A DNA stretch of 56,142 bases, filler included, from an uncultured bacterium (lineage in GTDB: Bacteria > AUK180), in NCBI GenBank assembly GCA_937863565.1. It is 4 parts of 4 records of this genome, joined end to end, with 100 filler letters (N's around TTAATTAATTAA, not from the genome) between each part and the next. Parts side by side here need not be neighbours in the genome. Positions count along the whole stretch, not along the records: positions 1 to 10,579 come from CALMGJ010000024.1; 3 more parts are not named here. The stretch is one strand, 5' to 3'. The notes below the pieces were generated by a model. It did not search any database and had not been told where the DNA came from. It saw nothing but the letters and a program-made list of their open reading frames with translations. Below, piece after piece: positions 7,023 through 36,961 of the stretch. The position numbers and the translations under genes were made by a program. Position 1 is the first letter of the stretch, and the number at the start of each line of letters is the position of its first letter.

Positions 7023-8277
7023 ATTTCAGTTTTTTCAGTTCCTTCAATGCAATGTCCCTTTCCGCTTCGAATCCGTGCTCCTCAGCTATGAGGGCGGCTC
7101 TTTTCAACTCTTCCGCAGCAGAAACCTTCGACATCCCGGTCAGGAACTGCGCTTTGTAGGTCAGTACAGAGACATAGATCTGGTAAACGCCGTATTTTTC
7201 CGCCAGTCTTTCGGCCTTCTTAAAATAATCCATCCCTTCTTCCGTTCTTTTTCTGTAGCATAGGACGGTCCCGAGATTAGTGTATATTCTGCACAAATTT
7301 ACATTATCATTCAAGGCGCCAAAGACACGCCTCGCTTTCTCCAGAAGCAAAGTCGCCGCGGAGTATTCACGCCTTTCGAGGTGGATGGTCGCTATGTCCA
7401 TCTGTGCCAGAGCAATACCCCTTTTCTGACCGAATTCCTCGTACATACGCAGGGCTTTACGAAAATATTTCAATGCGATCTGGAGTTGGAGTTTCCTTTT
7501 ATGTGTCACACCGAGAAGGATAAAACCGTTTGCAACACCCATTTTGTCGTTTATCTCCCCCGAGAGTTCCAGCGATCTTTGAGCATACGCGGATGCCTTC
7601 CCGTAATGCCCCATATCGAGAGATAGTTTTGCCAAAGACCCGTAGATCTGCGCTTCGCCCTGCTTAAAACCTATATCCCGTACAAGTGCAATATAATCTA
7701 CGAAAGCTTGCTCCGCTTCCTTGAATTTCCCCGTTTCCATCCGAATATTGCCAATATTGCGAAGCGTAGTTGAAATGTATCGCTTCTCCCCGAGTTGTCG
7801 AAAGATCAGAAGGGACTTTTCAAAATATTTCAGTGCCTCTGTATATTTGCCCTGTTTCGTGAATATCGAACCGATATTGGTAAGACTTGATGCGATCCTG
7901 AAATTATTACGGTCTTTTTCGGCTTCTTTCAATGCCCGGGAATAGTAGGTGAAGGAAAGGTCGTAATCGCTTTTAAAATAATACAGAAGCCCGAAGTAAT
8001 TGTACAGGTCAGCTGCCGAACCGTAAACGCGGGATTCCGCTTTCTTCAGTGTTGATTCGGCAAGCTTGAAATCCCTCTTACCCATGATCAGATTGGCTGC
8101 CGTAAGAAGTAAAAGCTCATATCGTATCGGGTCATCCTGAGCCATATTAATGGCTGTTCTGCAATCTTCAAGGGATTTTTCGAATAGACCGATATGTTTG
8201 TAGACCTGCGCTCTGAGGTGCAGGGCCTTGATGATCTGCGGGTATTTCCTCCCGGCATCCCTTTTTCCTGTTCCCAT
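7009..8277 (-). CDS. Tetratricopeptide repeat protein (~40-aa TPR units)
   Basis: Repeated SLTNIGSIF..QGKY.EAL.YFEKSL units. Confidence 0.85.
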   Translation of the reverse strand: MGTGKRDAGRKYPQIIKALHLRAQVYKHIGLFEKSLEDCRTAINMAQDDPIRYELLLLTAANLIMGKRDFKLAESTLKKAESRVYGSAADLYNYFGLLYYFKSDYDLSFTYYSRALKEAEKDRNNFRIASSLTNIGSIFTKQGKYTEALKYFEKSLLIFRQLGEKRYISTTLRNIGNIRMETGKFKEAEQAFVDYIALVRDIGFKQGEAQIYGSLAKLSLDMGHYGKASAYAQRSLELSGEINDKMGVANGFILLGVTHKRKLQLQIALKYFRKALRMYEEFGQKRGIALAQMDIATIHLERREYSAATLLLEKARRVFGALNDNVNLCRIYTNLGTVLCYRKRTEEGMDYFKKAERLAEKYGVYQIYVSVLTYKAQFLTGMSKVSAAEELKRAALIAEEHGFEAERDIALKELKKLKFDKK

Positions 8278-8282
8278 ATTCT

Positions 8283-8311
8283 ATTATACCGAGAAAAGAG
8301 GTTTATTACAA
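8283..8311 (-). promoter_or_regulatory. sigma70 promoter; leaderless TPR mRNA
   Basis: TTGTAA-N17-TATAAT-N5-ATG. Confidence 0.7.
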
Positions 8312-8325
8312 GGTGAGCGGCCAAA

Positions 8326-8381
8326 GTGAAAAATGGAGAATGGAAAATTGACAACGGAGAATTGACGGTTCAAAATCAAAA
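8326..8381 (+). repeat. Degenerate tandem heptamer repeat (8 units)
   Basis: GTGAAAA ATGGAGA ATGGAAA ATTGACA ACGGAGA ATTGACG GTTCAAA ATCAAAA. Confidence 0.7.
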
Positions 8382-8517
8382 ATATTCAAGATCACCACGA
8401 TAACTCGCAGGCGATCATCCGCCGACACTCAATAGAATAACACTTCTCAATAATCCCTATGGTAATATCACGCTTTATAATTCATGCTTCAAGGGTAGAC
8501 GTGACGGTAGGTCAGGA

Positions 8518-8985
8518 TTATTTTGCGATCCGCCGTATCCCGAGAAAATATTTTTCCCAGTAATTATTCCCTTTATAAATACTGATCCGCACTGAACCCC
8601 CGGAACTGTTCGAATGGATCATCTTCCCGTCCCTGTACACGATGCCCACATGGGAAGCGCGACCTTTTTTCTCTATTGCAAAGAAAATGATGTCGCCTGG
8701 TTTTTCTTTACCCTTATTAACCGGTGAACCTTTCGTATAGATATCCCCGCATGTTCTCGGAAGGCTTACGCCGTTCTTTTCAAAAACATACTGCACAAAA
8801 CCCGAACAATCAAAACCCGGATTGCCCGTTCCTCCCTTCTGGTAGGGTCGGTCAAGTAATTTCAATGCTTCCTTGATGATCTTTTCCGCATCGGGATTAA
8901 CAGGAATACCGGGATCATCTTTCACTTGACGTCCGCAAGAGAACAATAGAAGAAGCAGTAAATAGAAAAAAGTTTTTTTCAGCAT
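8518..8985 (-). CDS. NlpC/P60 (C40) peptidoglycan endopeptidase lipoprotein
   Basis: Lipobox LFSC; PYQKGG...GFDCSGFVQYVF; LPRT; HVGI; MIHS. Confidence 0.92.
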   Translation of the reverse strand: MLKKTFFYLLLLLLFSCGRQVKDDPGIPVNPDAEKIIKEALKLLDRPYQKGGTGNPGFDCSGFVQYVFEKNGVSLPRTCGDIYTKGSPVNKGKEKPGDIIFFAIEKKGRASHVGIVYRDGKMIHSNSSGGSVRISIYKGNNYWEKYFLGIRRIAK

Positions 8986-8995
8986 TGCAGGTATG

Positions 8996-9052
8996 AAATA
9001 AAAAAAAGAATGGGAAGGCGTCGAAAGGAGGGGGTAAGTAGACGCCTTCCCA
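8996..9052 (-). terminator. Rho-independent terminator on the minus strand with a C-rich loop
   Basis: Perfect 12-bp stem TGGGAAGGCGTC (9011-9022) / GACGCCTTCCCA (9041-9052), followed on the minus strand by TTCTTTTTTTTATTT. Confidence 0.75.
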
Positions 9053-9172
9053 GAAGTATGAGGGGTCTATGGTTTTGCGAGGAGAAAGGCCGTTTGATTA
9101 AATTGATTGAAGAAAGGAGGGGTAAATAGAAAGCCTTTCTCACCATACACTTTTTTATTAATTCAAAGAACA
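8996..9172 (-). ncRNA. Candidate sigma54-dependent sRNA with two anti-Shine-Dalgarno (CCCCUCCUUUC) motifs
   Basis: Flanked by a sigma54-like promoter and a terminator; two stem-loops each enclose UA(C/U)UUACCCC(C)UCCUUUC; no convincing ORF. Confidence 0.55.
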
Positions 9173-9182
9173 TATCTATTAC

Positions 9183-9198
9183 ATCAAGAATTGTGCCA
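9183..9198 (-). promoter_or_regulatory. sigma54 (-24/-12) promoter-like element
   Basis: Minus strand TGGCAC-AATTC-TTGAT against consensus TGGCAC-N5-TTGCW; correct spacing, C-to-A at -12. Confidence 0.6.
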
Positions 9199-9225
9199 AA
9201 TCTTGTTCGCCCTATAATAAAGGCT

Positions 9226-10578
9226 TTATGGAGAACGCTCACTTTTAGTATGTTGACTTTTTTTCAACTTAGTGGAATATTGTTCCGTTAATCTGTATTT
9301 CTTAACAATTTTATAGAAATAAGAACGTTCGATCCCGGAGATCTCAATGATCTTCGGCACATCCCACCCGTATTTATTTAAAAGATTCATAAAATACTCT
9401 TTTATTATTTCCTCTTTCCAGTAATCGATCACCTTTTTCAAGGGCTGTTCGATGTTCACGGACAGGTTGCCCGGTCTTTCCTCCTCCAATACTTCAGCTC
9501 TTCTCGGCGGTAGAAGGATATTGCCTTCCTGGATCACATTGTTGCTGCATACGATAACGGCTTTTTCTATGATATGCTCCAATTCCCTGATATTCCCAGG
9601 ATAATCGTAAGACATCAGTTTGAGCGATGCTTTTTCTGATATCTCCGGCACATTCTTCGAATATTGCACTGCATATTTCTGCATGAAATAATACGAAAGA
9701 GGAATGATGTCGGGCCGTCTTTCCCTCAGAGGAGGGAGATCGATATGGAATACGTTCAAGCGGTAGAAGAGGTCCTTTCTGAAGGTTTTTTTGGCAACGA
9801 GGCCGTTAAGGTCCTGATTTGTCGCAGCGATCAATCTGAAGTCGATATCTACGCTCTTCGTGCTTCCGAGCCTGCGTATCTTTTTCTCTTCAAGGACCCT
9901 GAGAAGCTTCGCTTGAAGATCATAAGGCATATCCCCTATCTCATCAAGGAACAAAGTTCCGTTCTGAGACAATTCGAAAAGACCGGACTTAGCGTTCACA
10001 GCACCCGTAAAAGCGCCTTTTTCATAACCGAACAACTCGCTCTCCAATAATTCCCTCGGTATAGACGAGCAGTTTATAGCGAGGAATTTTTCTTTGTCTA
10101 CATTTGAGGAATCATGGATCAGCCGGGCGAACAGTTCTTTGCCGGTACCGGTCTCTCCGGTAATAAGCACCGTTACTTTCGTCTTTGCCAGCTCGGCAAT
10201 ATCTTTAAAAATCGTTCTGATATAGGGAGTAGTGCCGATGATCCCGTTGAAGGCATGTTCGATATCTGAAAGGGAGGACAGCGTTTTTACTTCCTTTTTC
10301 AGAATGATATTGAATTTGATCTTCTCCAACGCCACTTTGAGATCGTCCAACTCCATAGGTTTGAATATAACTTCAGCGGCTCCGCGGCGGATTGCTTCCA
10401 GTTCGATCTGCGCTCCCCTCTCTGCCGTGATCAGTATTGAAGAGATCATGAACTCGGTGGAAAATTTTTCCACAATTTCCAGACCATTGCCGTTCGGAAG
10501 ATTTTTATCTATGATCGCGATATCGATCTTATTCCTGTTCGCGGAATCGATCGCTTCTTTGTTATTTCTGGCTTGAAC
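9226..10578 (-). CDS. NtrC-family sigma54-dependent response regulator (REC-AAA+-HTH), 5'-truncated at the contig end
   Basis: Frame extends to the gap (VQARNNKEAID...IAIIDKNLPNGNGLEIV, receiver Asp); GETGTGKE; GAFTGA; LFLDEIG; FRKDLFYRL; YPGNIRELE; C-terminal HTH. Confidence 0.93.
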   Translation of the reverse strand, partial: VQARNNKEAIDSANRNKIDIAIIDKNLPNGNGLEIVEKFSTEFMISSILITAERGAQIELEAIRRGAAEVIFKPMELDDLKVALEKIKFNIILKKEVKTLSSLSDIEHAFNGIIGTTPYIRTIFKDIAELAKTKVTVLITGETGTGKELFARLIHDSSNVDKEKFLAINCSSIPRELLESELFGYEKGAFTGAVNAKSGLFELSQNGTLFLDEIGDMPYDLQAKLLRVLEEKKIRRLGSTKSVDIDFRLIAATNQDLNGLVAKKTFRKDLFYRLNVFHIDLPPLRERRPDIIPLSYYFMQKYAVQYSKNVPEISEKASLKLMSYDYPGNIRELEHIIEKAVIVCSNNVIQEGNILLPPRRAEVLEEERPGNLSVNIEQPLKKVIDYWKEEIIKEYFMNLLNKYGWDVPKIIEISGIERSYFYKIVKKYRLTEQYSTKLKKSQHTKSERSP

Positions 10579-10579
10579 A

Positions 10580-10679
10580 NNNNNNNNNNNNNNNNNNNNN
10601 NNNNNNNNNNNNNNNNNNNNNNNTTAATTAATTAANNNNNNNNNNNNNNNNNNNNNNNNNNNNNNNNNNNNNNNNNNNN
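10580..10679. other. Artificial contig-join spacer
   Basis: N-run with embedded TTAATTAATTAA (stops in all six frames). Confidence 0.97.
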
Positions 10680-23112: not shown

Positions 23113-23212
23113 NNNNNNNNNNNNNNNNNNNNNNNNNNNNNNNNNNNNNNNNNNNNTTAATTAATTAANNNNNNNNNNNNNNNNNNNNNNNNNNNNNNNN
23201 NNNNNNNNNNNN
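23113..23212. other. Artificial contig-join spacer
   Basis: N-run with TTAATTAATTAA. Confidence 0.97.
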
Positions 23213-34202: not shown

Positions 34203-34302
34203 NNNNNNNNNNNNNNNNNNNNNNNNNNNNNNNNNNNNNNNNNNNNTTAATTAATTAANNNNNNNNNNNNNNNNNNNNNNNNNNNNNNNNNNNNNNNNNN
34301 NN
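34203..34302. other. Artificial contig-join spacer
   Basis: N-run with TTAATTAATTAA. Confidence 0.97.
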
Positions 34303-35926: not shown

Positions 35927-36961
35927 CTAAAATTTTGCTTCGAATCTGATCATGCCGCCGAATTTCCCGAATTCGGCCATGGAGAACTCGTCTTCTCCGG
36001 TCCCGGTGATCCCGTATACCTGAAAGGTTAGATCAAGGCCGTTATTGAGCGTCCATTTTGCTCCGGGAGTAAGTATCGCGCTTGAATCTACGAGGTTCCC
36101 GAATGCGTAAAAGAATGCCGAAAAGAATTCGTCAAAGATGAAATTGGTATTGAAGAACAGATAATGCCTTGCTTGAAAATATCGGTCCGTTGCCGCCTCT
36201 CCGGAGTAATCCGCGACAGCGTTCGCGCCGGATTCGTTATAATAATATAAGGCTTGAACGAAAAACTTTGCGGAAAAGAAATGTTCGAATCCGACATTGC
36301 CTTCGAAGAAATTCTCCGTGGCACCATCGTTGAAATGGTATGCGAAACTGCCGGAAATATTGGTTAAAAGATCACCTTTGAAGAATATTCCGGCAACATT
36401 GCGCCCCGGGGCGAGACGGTTGATCACCGCTCCCGCGTCGAATCTCAGCATGTTGCCGAAGATCTGGACCCCTGCCGAACTTTCGTCGAATTCAGCGTTC
36501 GGCGCGATATACGATCTTATCCCGGAGAGTTCCCCGAGGGCTATGTCCCAGACAAAAGCGTCCGCGCCCGATCTGTCGTACGATATATCGGACATGCTTA
36601 TCTCTTTATCGCGCTCGAAAGGATTGAAAACGCCGAAATTGCCGAGAGCCACATATGTTCTTCCTATCGTGAACGTTCCGATCCTTGAATAGTACCGGAT
36701 GAAACATCTCATCAGGCGGAAATCGCTCTCGCCGGCCGCTTCTTCAGCCAGCCCCGAATAGAGGAGCAGTCTCAGGTCACCGAAGAATTTCCAGGCTTCA
36801 GTCCGGTGTTCGATATTTATCCTGTTCTCGAGGATATTGGAAGAATAGACCTTGTTCCCGCCATAGGTGAAAATATAATCGTCCCGGAAAACCCCCGTCA
36901 TGCCGGATGCAGATACTGCTGCGGCAAAAAGAACTGCGGCTGTGAAAAGGGCTCTTCTCAT
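35927..36961 (-). CDS. Outer-membrane beta-barrel protein associated with the Lol-like ABC system
   Basis: Signal peptide; FTIGR....G..GVFNP; amphipathic strands; terminal Phe. Confidence 0.6.
   Translation of the reverse strand: MRRALFTAAVLFAAAVSASGMTGVFRDDYIFTYGGNKVYSSNILENRINIEHRTEAWKFFGDLRLLLYSGLAEEAAGESDFRLMRCFIRYYSRIGTFTIGRTYVALGNFGVFNPFERDKEISMSDISYDRSGADAFVWDIALGELSGIRSYIAPNAEFDESSAGVQIFGNMLRFDAGAVINRLAPGRNVAGIFFKGDLLTNISGSFAYHFNDGATENFFEGNVGFEHFFSAKFFVQALYYYNESGANAVADYSGEAATDRYFQARHYLFFNTNFIFDEFFSAFFYAFGNLVDSSAILTPGAKWTLNNGLDLTFQVYGITGTGEDEFSMAEFGKFGGMIRFEAKF

Follow-up and report, generated by a model that had tools for sequence, protein, structure and literature searches.

A conserved, probably sigma-54-driven small RNA gene with C-rich loops lies directly behind a sigma-54 activator gene in an uncultured bacterial lineage

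The locus described here lies in a 56-kb window (the whole stretch of DNA that was analysed) from the genome of an uncultured bacterium. A gene encoding a sigma-54 enhancer-binding protein is followed there by nlpC, and the gap between the activator stop (9226) and the nlpC start (8985) holds a complete set of elements on the minus strand (Table 1). The first-pass annotation of this DNA had listed a sigma-54 promoter, two stems, a terminator, a U tract and C-rich motifs in the gap; all of these are present at the positions given in Table 1, and the third, partial motif that it had marked at about 9060-9066 proved to be ACCCCUCA at 9066-9059. The C-rich CCCCUCCUU motifs are unpaired in the loops of both hairpins, and the end of the terminator is separated from the nlpC start codon by 15 nt. 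The window joins several contigs, of which the first runs to 10579; as the activator frame stays open up to this contig end, the listed ORF of 415 codons is a truncation.

Table 1. Features of the activator-sRNA locus in the window.
Feature	Position	Strand	Remarks
Promoter of the sigma-54 type (-24/-12), TGGCACAATTCTTGAT, TGGCAC-N5-TTGAT	9183..9198	-	predicted +1 near 9172
Predicted sRNA, about 173 nt	8999..9172	-	covariance model 161.6 bits; fold z = -6.5
Conserved GUUCUUU box, 5', where the transcript is predicted to begin	9165..9171	-	invariant in 7/7 copies
Hairpin 1	9082..9141	-	stem 9141-9133 with 9090-9082; large loop holds ACCCCUCCUUUC (9112-9123)
Linker motif ACCCCUCA, single-stranded, between the hairpins	9059..9066	-	present in the 4 long forms
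Terminator hairpin	9011..9052	-	perfect 12-bp stem 9052-9041 with 9022-9011; 18-nt loop holds ACCCCCUCCUUUC (9023-9035)
U-rich tail UUC-U8 of the intrinsic terminator	9000..9010	-	T-run after the hairpin in 7/7 copies
Gene for sigma-54 enhancer-binding protein (REC, AAA+ with GAFTGA, C-terminal region)	9226..10578	-	5' end cut by contig end 10579
Predicted enhancer site 1, 17-bp palindrome	9272..9288		2 mismatches to GTGGAA-N5-TTCCAC; starts 90 nt upstream of TGGCAC
Predicted enhancer site 2, 17-bp palindrome	9252..9268		3 mismatches; site 1 lies 20 bp upstream
Perfect palindrome GTGGAA-N5-TTCCAC	10457..10473		within the activator gene, in the segment encoding the receiver

The promoter pattern TGGCAC-N5-TTGMW occurs twice in the window (9183-9198 on the minus strand and 36319-36334 on the plus strand), against a mean of 0.06 +/- 0.24 in shuffled sequence, where none of 100 shuffles contained two or more copies. 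The 9-mer CCCCTCCTT is also found twice in the window, both times in the sRNA gap; this is less striking, since at least two copies arose in 12 of 100 shuffles (mean 0.56). The hairpin at 9011-9052 escaped a simple terminator scan that accepts only loops of 3-8 nt, as its own loop has 18 nt.

The product of the activator gene matches the Pfam families Response_reg (45.9 bits), Sigma54_activat (234.8 bits) and AAA_lid_14. With a receiver, a sigma-54 AAA+ domain bearing GAFTGA and a lid domain, its reading as an NtrC-type activator thus appears right. Its C-terminal region gave no Pfam HTH match (HTH_8 was absent at E <= 5), and comparison of the protein with NCBIfam gave no equivalog at its cut-off. 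The Asp in the ...AIID... stretch, chosen by eye and not through a profile, is likely to be the phospho-acceptor. Orthologues from the three relatives found by BLASTN are 52-64% identical to the window protein and have an invariant GAFTGA. The receiver domain is divergent in relatives: in G004 the Response_reg match falls to 34.9 bits and the aligned stretch was read as ...LLIAE..., and the G003 and G005 activators have no Response_reg match. The upstream genes examined in G004 and G005 gave no match to a histidine kinase family. As to host factors, the window genome has one rpoN (a single Sigma54_DBD match, 168.6 bits), ten full sigma-54 activator genes and hfq, while CsrA was not found in it (the genome is 95.5% complete). 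The original claim that a GAFTGA enhancer-binding protein is encoded immediately upstream is therefore borne out, with GAFTGA visible and rpoN present.

The consensus sequence for sigma-54 is TGGCAC-N5-TTGCW, in which ten bases separate the GG of the -24 element from the GC of the -12 element. When the copies of the locus from seven related genomes were aligned, the promoter read TGGCAC-N5-TTGC(A/T) in six of them, and the window copy alone had TTGA (GG-N10-GA). The distance between the promoter and the GUUCUUU box is constant across copies, and the promoter also stands at a fixed distance from a pair of tandem palindromes, which were found at -90/-89 and -70/-69 in all seven genomes. Conservation of the promoter in relatives, which the first-pass annotation had named as a point to be checked, was thus observed. 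It was conceivable that the gap is nothing else than the 3' UTR of the activator mRNA with its terminator, in which the promoter-like element is non-functional and the C-rich loops are incidental. There is indeed no terminator between the activator stop codon and the hairpins, the -12 element of the window copy is off consensus, and cbrB-crcZ provides a precedent for such RNAs being also 3' UTRs (PMC5113210). However, the consensus promoter of the other six genomes keeps its distances to the palindromes and the box while the flanking sequence diverges, and the loop motifs are invariant across genera when the stem of hairpin 1 is not. We thus regard a mere 3' UTR as very improbable.

The tandem 17-bp palindromes are spaced by 20 bp, or two helical turns, and fall in the final ~15 codons of the activator gene, a stretch in which the protein shows little sequence conservation. 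The perfect palindrome at 10457..10473 is the sole perfect copy in the 2.27-Mb window genome. A perfect or one-mismatch palindrome is present at the matching offset (-1268 to -1278) in G001, G002, G004 and G006; G003 and G005 have extra palindromes upstream of the activator gene instead, and one of those in G005 immediately precedes a TATAAT box that lies ahead of the activator start codon. It is possible that the palindrome at 10457..10473 is a third activator site, serving autoregulation or looping. Among five relatives, six of the seven perfect palindromes fall in the module locus, and one-mismatch palindromes elsewhere are at control level (2-13 per genome versus 4-7 for the reversed pattern). 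In the window genome, 79 palindromes with at most 2 mismatches were counted versus 67-95 in shuffles, so that there is no excess, and no tandem pair was seen at this threshold, as the second site of the window has 3 mismatches. The window copy in fact has the weakest signals of the seven, with TTGA at -12 and palindromes bearing 2 and 3 mismatches.

The tandem palindromes are probably the enhancer sites of the activator, which, judging from their placement, would bind them and drive the sRNA promoter. It probably also autoregulates and may regulate little or nothing else; since the palindromes are clustered at the module locus alone, the protein seems to be essentially a single-target activator. 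Two further sigma-54-like matches, at C11:168259 and C19:10519, were rejected as unrelated, since they are inverted repeats (TTGGCA-N7-TGCCAA) within long leaders that follow sigma-70-like promoters.

The comparison set within the phylum consisted of nine species genomes, seven of family f1 (the window's included) and two of its sister family, f2. A BLASTN search of 41 genomes gave three real matches to the gap, all in the same family as the window genome; short matches of 22-51 nt were also obtained in the unrelated genomes G017, G025, G029 and G035 (E 5e-4 to 6e-3). A covariance model (R1), built from the window copy and the three BLASTN relatives, four sequences altogether, found one copy per genome in 7/7 genomes of f1 and no match in 2/2 genomes of f2, which are 80% and 72% complete. 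The sister family has no clear orthologue of the activator either: its best matches are 39-43% identical, like paralogues, and neither promoter nor motif was found beside the six best activator-like loci. All seven copies in f1 immediately follow the orthologous gene for the REC-AAA+ sigma-54 activator, in agreement with the initial idea that the gap is a complete minus-strand unit linked to the activator encoded upstream. As all seven genomes come from one family, this family-wide conservation is not independent evidence.

On the other side of the element, the neighbours are not shared. The copy in the window is followed by the NlpC/P60 gene, that in G005 by a gene for a MORN protein, and those in G002 and G004 by convergent genes for a glycosyltransferase and a DNA ligase, respectively. 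The RNA element therefore travels with the activator and not with nlpC. This bears directly on the possibility that the region is a cis-acting leader or attenuator of nlpC, which the first-pass annotation had itself raised against its own proposal and which the short distance of the terminator from the nlpC start codon would favour. With a downstream gene that is different in every genus, and convergent in G002, such a role is excluded.

The predicted RNA comes in two forms. In genus g2, represented by three species, a short form of ~95 nt has retained promoter, GUUCUUU box and terminator hairpin (with the loop C10-UCCUUUC), and is devoid of hairpin 1 and of the linker motif. The terminator loop is thus the sole motif-bearing loop common to all seven copies, and the number of C-rich motifs per RNA ranges from one to three. 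In the alignment of the long forms, the linker motif ACCCCUCA of the window is replaced by ACACCUCA in G002. A pattern describing the terminator hairpin was also run over genome contigs, where it returned 103 stretches and was evidently too loose, and over metagenome contigs, where it returned at least 120. After filtering for the promoter or the T-run, 13 stretches passed across both scans; six had both features, and these were the relatives already found. Among the matches listed, no metagenome stretch had promoter and T-run together.

The predicted minus-strand RNA folds at -44.5 kcal/mol, compared to -24.5 +/- 3.1 kcal/mol for shuffled sequences (z = -6.5; 0/200 shuffles as good), with all three C-rich motifs unpaired. 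Across the folds of the relatives' RNAs and the window RNA, z ranges from -5.4 to -7.3, and the C-rich motifs lie in large open loops in G002, G003 and G004. For covariation, we used a model-fitted alignment of 7 sequences with 24 modelled pairs, together with 500 shuffles and slid controls. Pairing was possible in 98.5% of cells (42-54% in the slid controls), and compensatory changes were seen in 9/24 pairs. Eight of these are among the 13 stem pairs of hairpin 1; in the terminator stem, 10 of 11 modelled pairs are invariant over the seven genomes and one is compensatory, so this stem contributes little covariation. None of the 500 shuffles matched the observed values for cells paired, compensatory changes or covariation score, and 19/500 reached the observed value for further pair types. 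Since the alignment is biased in favour of the model and the genomes are related to each other, this result is supportive of the RNA structure and is not a proof of it. The invariant parts of the RNA are the 5' GUUCUUU, the CCCCUCCUU of the loops and almost the entire terminator stem. In the comparison with relatives, hairpin 1 thus covaries, and loops and promoter are kept.

Two other readings of the gap may be weighed on these data. In three genomes the region is overlapped by ORFs 77-87 codons long, which could point to a small protein gene, yet comparison of the seven copies revealed no conserved reading frame over the sRNA: the frames shift between species, are not shared, and the indels are not multiples of three. 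We thus rejected this candidate. The plus strand of the gap also folds well (z = -3.9), which is what one might expect if it were transcribed into a CsrA sponge with GGA loops, an alternative that had been mentioned at the outset. The absence of CsrA from our findings in a nearly complete genome disfavours it, and the promoter and the U-tail are found on the minus strand only. Taken together with the nlpC leader, these readings are hardly credible.

Searches against Rfam gave no match in 8986-9225 at E <= 10; when the larger region 8000-10500 was scanned with 4227 families at E <= 10, six weak matches were returned, all below the gathering score and none in the gap. Models of the known Pxr, Qrr, CrcZ, NrsZ and GlmY RNAs, as far as these families are in Rfam, did not match the gap. 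A literature search by RNA type, for sigma-54- or RpoN-dependent sRNAs, gave nothing on the host lineage, and we know of no regulatory RNA from its phylum. On the strength of the sequence comparisons, a conserved sRNA gene driven by sigma-54 and the activator very probably exists in the gap, and the conserved activator-sRNA module is, on the same grounds, best described as a new RNA family on a known circuit plan.

That plan is known from several bacteria. LuxO-Qrr of Vibrio comprises RpoN-dependent sRNAs under an NtrC-type response regulator. In Pseudomonas aeruginosa, the RpoN-dependent NrsZ is encoded downstream of ntrBC and is under NtrC-type control (PMC9731577). The window RNA has no sequence similarity to NrsZ or Qrr, and while a sensor kinase partner is known in those systems, none is evident at the window module. 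Also among the nearest analogues is nla19-pxr of Myxococcus xanthus and other myxobacteria, with a ~100-nt sRNA gene with multiple stem-loops directly downstream of a sigma-54-dependent response-regulator gene, apparently with its own sigma-54 promoter and with linkage to nla19 conserved across genera (PMC5568312); the targets of Pxr are referred to as still unknown in a further paper (PMC11928866). The two modules appear alike in having an sRNA gene behind a sigma-54 activator gene, an apparent sigma-54 promoter of its own and conserved linkage. They differ in that the window RNA, which comes from a different phylum, is without sequence or Rfam similarity to Pxr, has anti-SD-like CCCCUCCUU loops, and has its presumed enhancer sites inside the activator coding sequence.

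The third comparison is with cbrB-crcZ of Pseudomonas. There, crcZ is located immediately downstream of the NtrC-family activator gene and is transcribed from an RpoN- and CbrB-dependent promoter, with additional read-through from cbrB; its RNA serves as a protein sponge that takes up Hfq/Crc (PMC5113210). The placement of an sRNA gene right behind the activator gene is the same in both cases. It was plausible to ask if the C/U-rich motifs of the window RNA might titrate an RNA-binding protein, like CrcZ does with Hfq/Crc, and not pair with mRNAs at all. Such a role would fit the circuit design and the recurrence of one motif in several accessible loops, by analogy with cbrB-crcZ (PMC5113210), hfq is present in the genome, and the invariance of the terminator stem goes beyond the needs of termination alone. 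On the other hand, a protein that binds these C-rich motifs is neither known nor was found in the genome, the genus that keeps a single motif would have a poorly designed sponge, and CsrA, which would bind the opposite strand in any case, was not found. The window RNA has C/U-rich motifs, shows no homology to CrcZ and more likely pairs with mRNAs, and we consider a sponge decidedly unlikely.

For the pairing itself, the nearest parallel comes from the cuckoo RNAs (alpha-r14: CcsR, NfeR1). Two reports describe them as having 2-4 hairpins, in a number that varies among members, with variable stems and an identical anti-SD-like C-rich loop motif, CCUCCUCCC, and present C-rich anti-SD loops as an established repression device (PMC4615179, PMC10746234). 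The window RNA resembles them in its variable stems, its repeated C-rich anti-SD-like loop motif and its variable hairpin number. It does not belong to the cuckoo/alpha-r14 family, since its motif is CCCCUCCUU and not CCUCCUCCC, and the Rfam search of the gap gave no match to that family. Moreover, cuckoo RNAs are alphaproteobacterial and are driven by RpoHI/HII or LsrB instead of sigma-54, and the window RNA differs from them in that one of its motifs is in the loop of the terminator and another in a linker that is single-stranded. Conserved C-rich loop motifs are also a feature of RNAIII of Staphylococcus, an unrelated and much longer RNA with a different regulator. Three of its hairpin loops carry UCCC motifs, with which it has been suggested to initiate binding to target mRNAs at their RBS (PMC4615179).

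The complement of the core motif CCCCUCCUU is AAGGAGGGG, a Shine-Dalgarno sequence in extended form. The motif has CCUCCUU in common with the 3' end of 16S rRNA (...GGGUCACCUCCUUAAGG), which was taken from the relative G002, as only the 5' half of the window genome's 16S is assembled. An SD core 4-mer precedes ~43% of 1630 crude starts in the window genome, compared to 16% far upstream; GGAG is present at -18..-6 in 499 of these starts versus 97 far upstream. The speculation that the RNA represses SD-led mRNAs while many leaderless mRNAs escape had presupposed a largely leaderless genome, and this premise is not borne out by the frequency of SD cores over background. The GGAGGGG type of extended SD is not enriched, with GG following GGAGG in 24/681 cases at the SD position and 199/4566 overall. 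The 9-mer AAGGAGGGG is rare (in G003 there are only two copies, both in the sRNA gene itself), and perfect 9-mer sites are not conserved at orthologous genes. Ranking of 15,849 candidate starts by duplex energy was dominated by generic SD pairing. Thus, no conserved specific target emerged from perfect 9-mers, GGAGGGG at the SD position or duplex energies. The rnfCDGEAB operon is a weak candidate: rnfA, rnfE and rnfD are in the top 45 of the window genome (-24.4, -23.1 and -22.1 kcal/mol), and the rnfE start region is in the best 5% of local positions in 7/7 genomes, a signal indistinguishable from generic SD pairing because all rnf genes have strong SDs.

These results might also be read in a quite different manner, namely that the RNA copies the 16S 3' tail and competes with ribosomes for most SD-led mRNAs. 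It would then slow translation in general, leaving SD-less mRNAs unaffected, and not be a regulator of few targets. The CCUCCUU in the invariant core, the presence of up to three motif copies per RNA and the lack of a specific conserved target in our searches are all in line with this, as is the fact that the motif has a contiguous match of at least 6 nt at 229/1630 starts and of at least 7 nt at 59 (29 and 2 in far-upstream controls); the same question has been raised for cuckoo RNAs (PMC4615179). However, the conserved run of at least 4 C's departs from CACC of the 16S sequence, which suggests selection for GGGG-containing partners, and the RNA would have to reach very high levels to titrate many mRNAs stoichiometrically. 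We therefore hold a global anti-SD mimic to be unlikely. Its signal-controlled version, in which the activator-induced RNA competes genome-wide and shifts translation to SD-less genes, appears quite unlikely; if it were true, translation would move towards the large SD-less gene fraction of the lineage.

Most likely, by analogy and from conservation of the seed, the RNA would pair with a limited number of mRNAs at ribosome-binding sites rich in G, possibly with Hfq. Such pairing with specific mRNAs at their ribosome-binding sites is the mode of action towards which we lean, and we are inclined, with the same reserve, to accept the whole model, in which an sRNA driven by the activator and sigma-54 acts in trans, its loops pairing with G-rich SD regions. 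According to this model, the activator gene and the gap downstream of it would form a two-gene regulatory module. The REC-AAA+ activator would bind the two tandem GTGGAA-N5-TTCCAC palindromes within the last codons of its own gene and open the sigma-54 promoter 70-90 bp downstream, giving rise to a non-coding RNA of ~173 nt (~95 nt in one genus) which ends at the intrinsic terminator. This RNA would display one to three unpaired C-rich motifs with the invariant core CCCCUCCUU, and would most likely act in trans by blocking translation initiation at G-rich ribosome-binding regions of its limited mRNA set, with Hfq possibly assisting the pairing. The terminator probably ends the activator's own mRNA as well, and processed read-through transcripts could supply a basal level of the RNA.

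The position of the predicted enhancer sites inside the last codons of the activator's own gene is a compact arrangement that is relevant to promoter prediction, and so is the further perfect palindrome, which is located within that gene or a short way ahead of it. The anti-SD-like loops pose the question of specific versus global translational control, which is shared with the cuckoo RNAs. An activator with nearly a single target would resemble LuxO-Qrr or Nla19-Pxr; the whole output of the protein would pass through one RNA, and the module should therefore be easy to test in a heterologous host. To a little-studied uncultured lineage, the module adds a predicted regulatory RNA with a likely promoter, predicted enhancer sites and a dedicated activator.

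A complete rnfCDGEAB operon, a weak candidate target of the predicted sRNA, lies at C8:444-5719 (locus L292) of the window's own genome, and its Shine-Dalgarno sequences are unusually G-rich (GGAGGGG for both rnfD and rnfE, GGAGGGA for rnfA). The G-rich sequence of rnfE was also found in most relatives. The 9-mer regarded as a putative sRNA target occurs as well in the same genome at C31:89663. There, a hairpin between genes (GGAGGGGG-N7-CCCCCUCC) has a T-run behind it on the minus strand; this hairpin is an ordinary terminator which contains the 9-mer by chance.

Two paralogous lipoprotein genes of this genome, at C11:168259 (minus strand) and C19:10519 (plus strand), have leaders of about 230-240 nt each. 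Both leaders begin downstream of a sigma-70-like promoter, and in both a stretch of (AATC)n repeats comes after an inverted repeat of the form TTGGCA-N7-TGCCAA. As the number of these units differs, being about 8 at C11 versus about 3 at C19, the repeats hint at a variable tract.

As to gene neighbourhoods, the window was chained from separate contigs via N runs (10580-10679, 23113-23212 and 34203-34302), and the genes flanking these runs are not genomic neighbours. In the relative G004, a 445-aa protein without a Pfam family is encoded immediately upstream of the activator gene (L247 8233-9570), and it is adjoined by a cNMP-binding protein.

Additional copies of the activator's palindrome (GTGGAA-N5-TTCCAC) were found within the receiver-coding portion of its own gene in 5 genomes; in G003 and G005, the copies are located upstream of this gene.

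Additional copies of the activator's palindrome
Genome	Coordinates	Location
G000 (window's own genome)	window 10457-10473	within receiver-coding portion of activator gene
G005 (relative)	L249 1448-1464 and 1800-1816	upstream of activator gene
G003 (relative)	L250 186-202 and 544-560	upstream of activator gene

One of the G005 copies is placed immediately 5' of a TATAAT box which precedes the activator's start codon. Because the extra palindromes sit inside or upstream of the activator's own gene, they suggest autoregulation or DNA looping.
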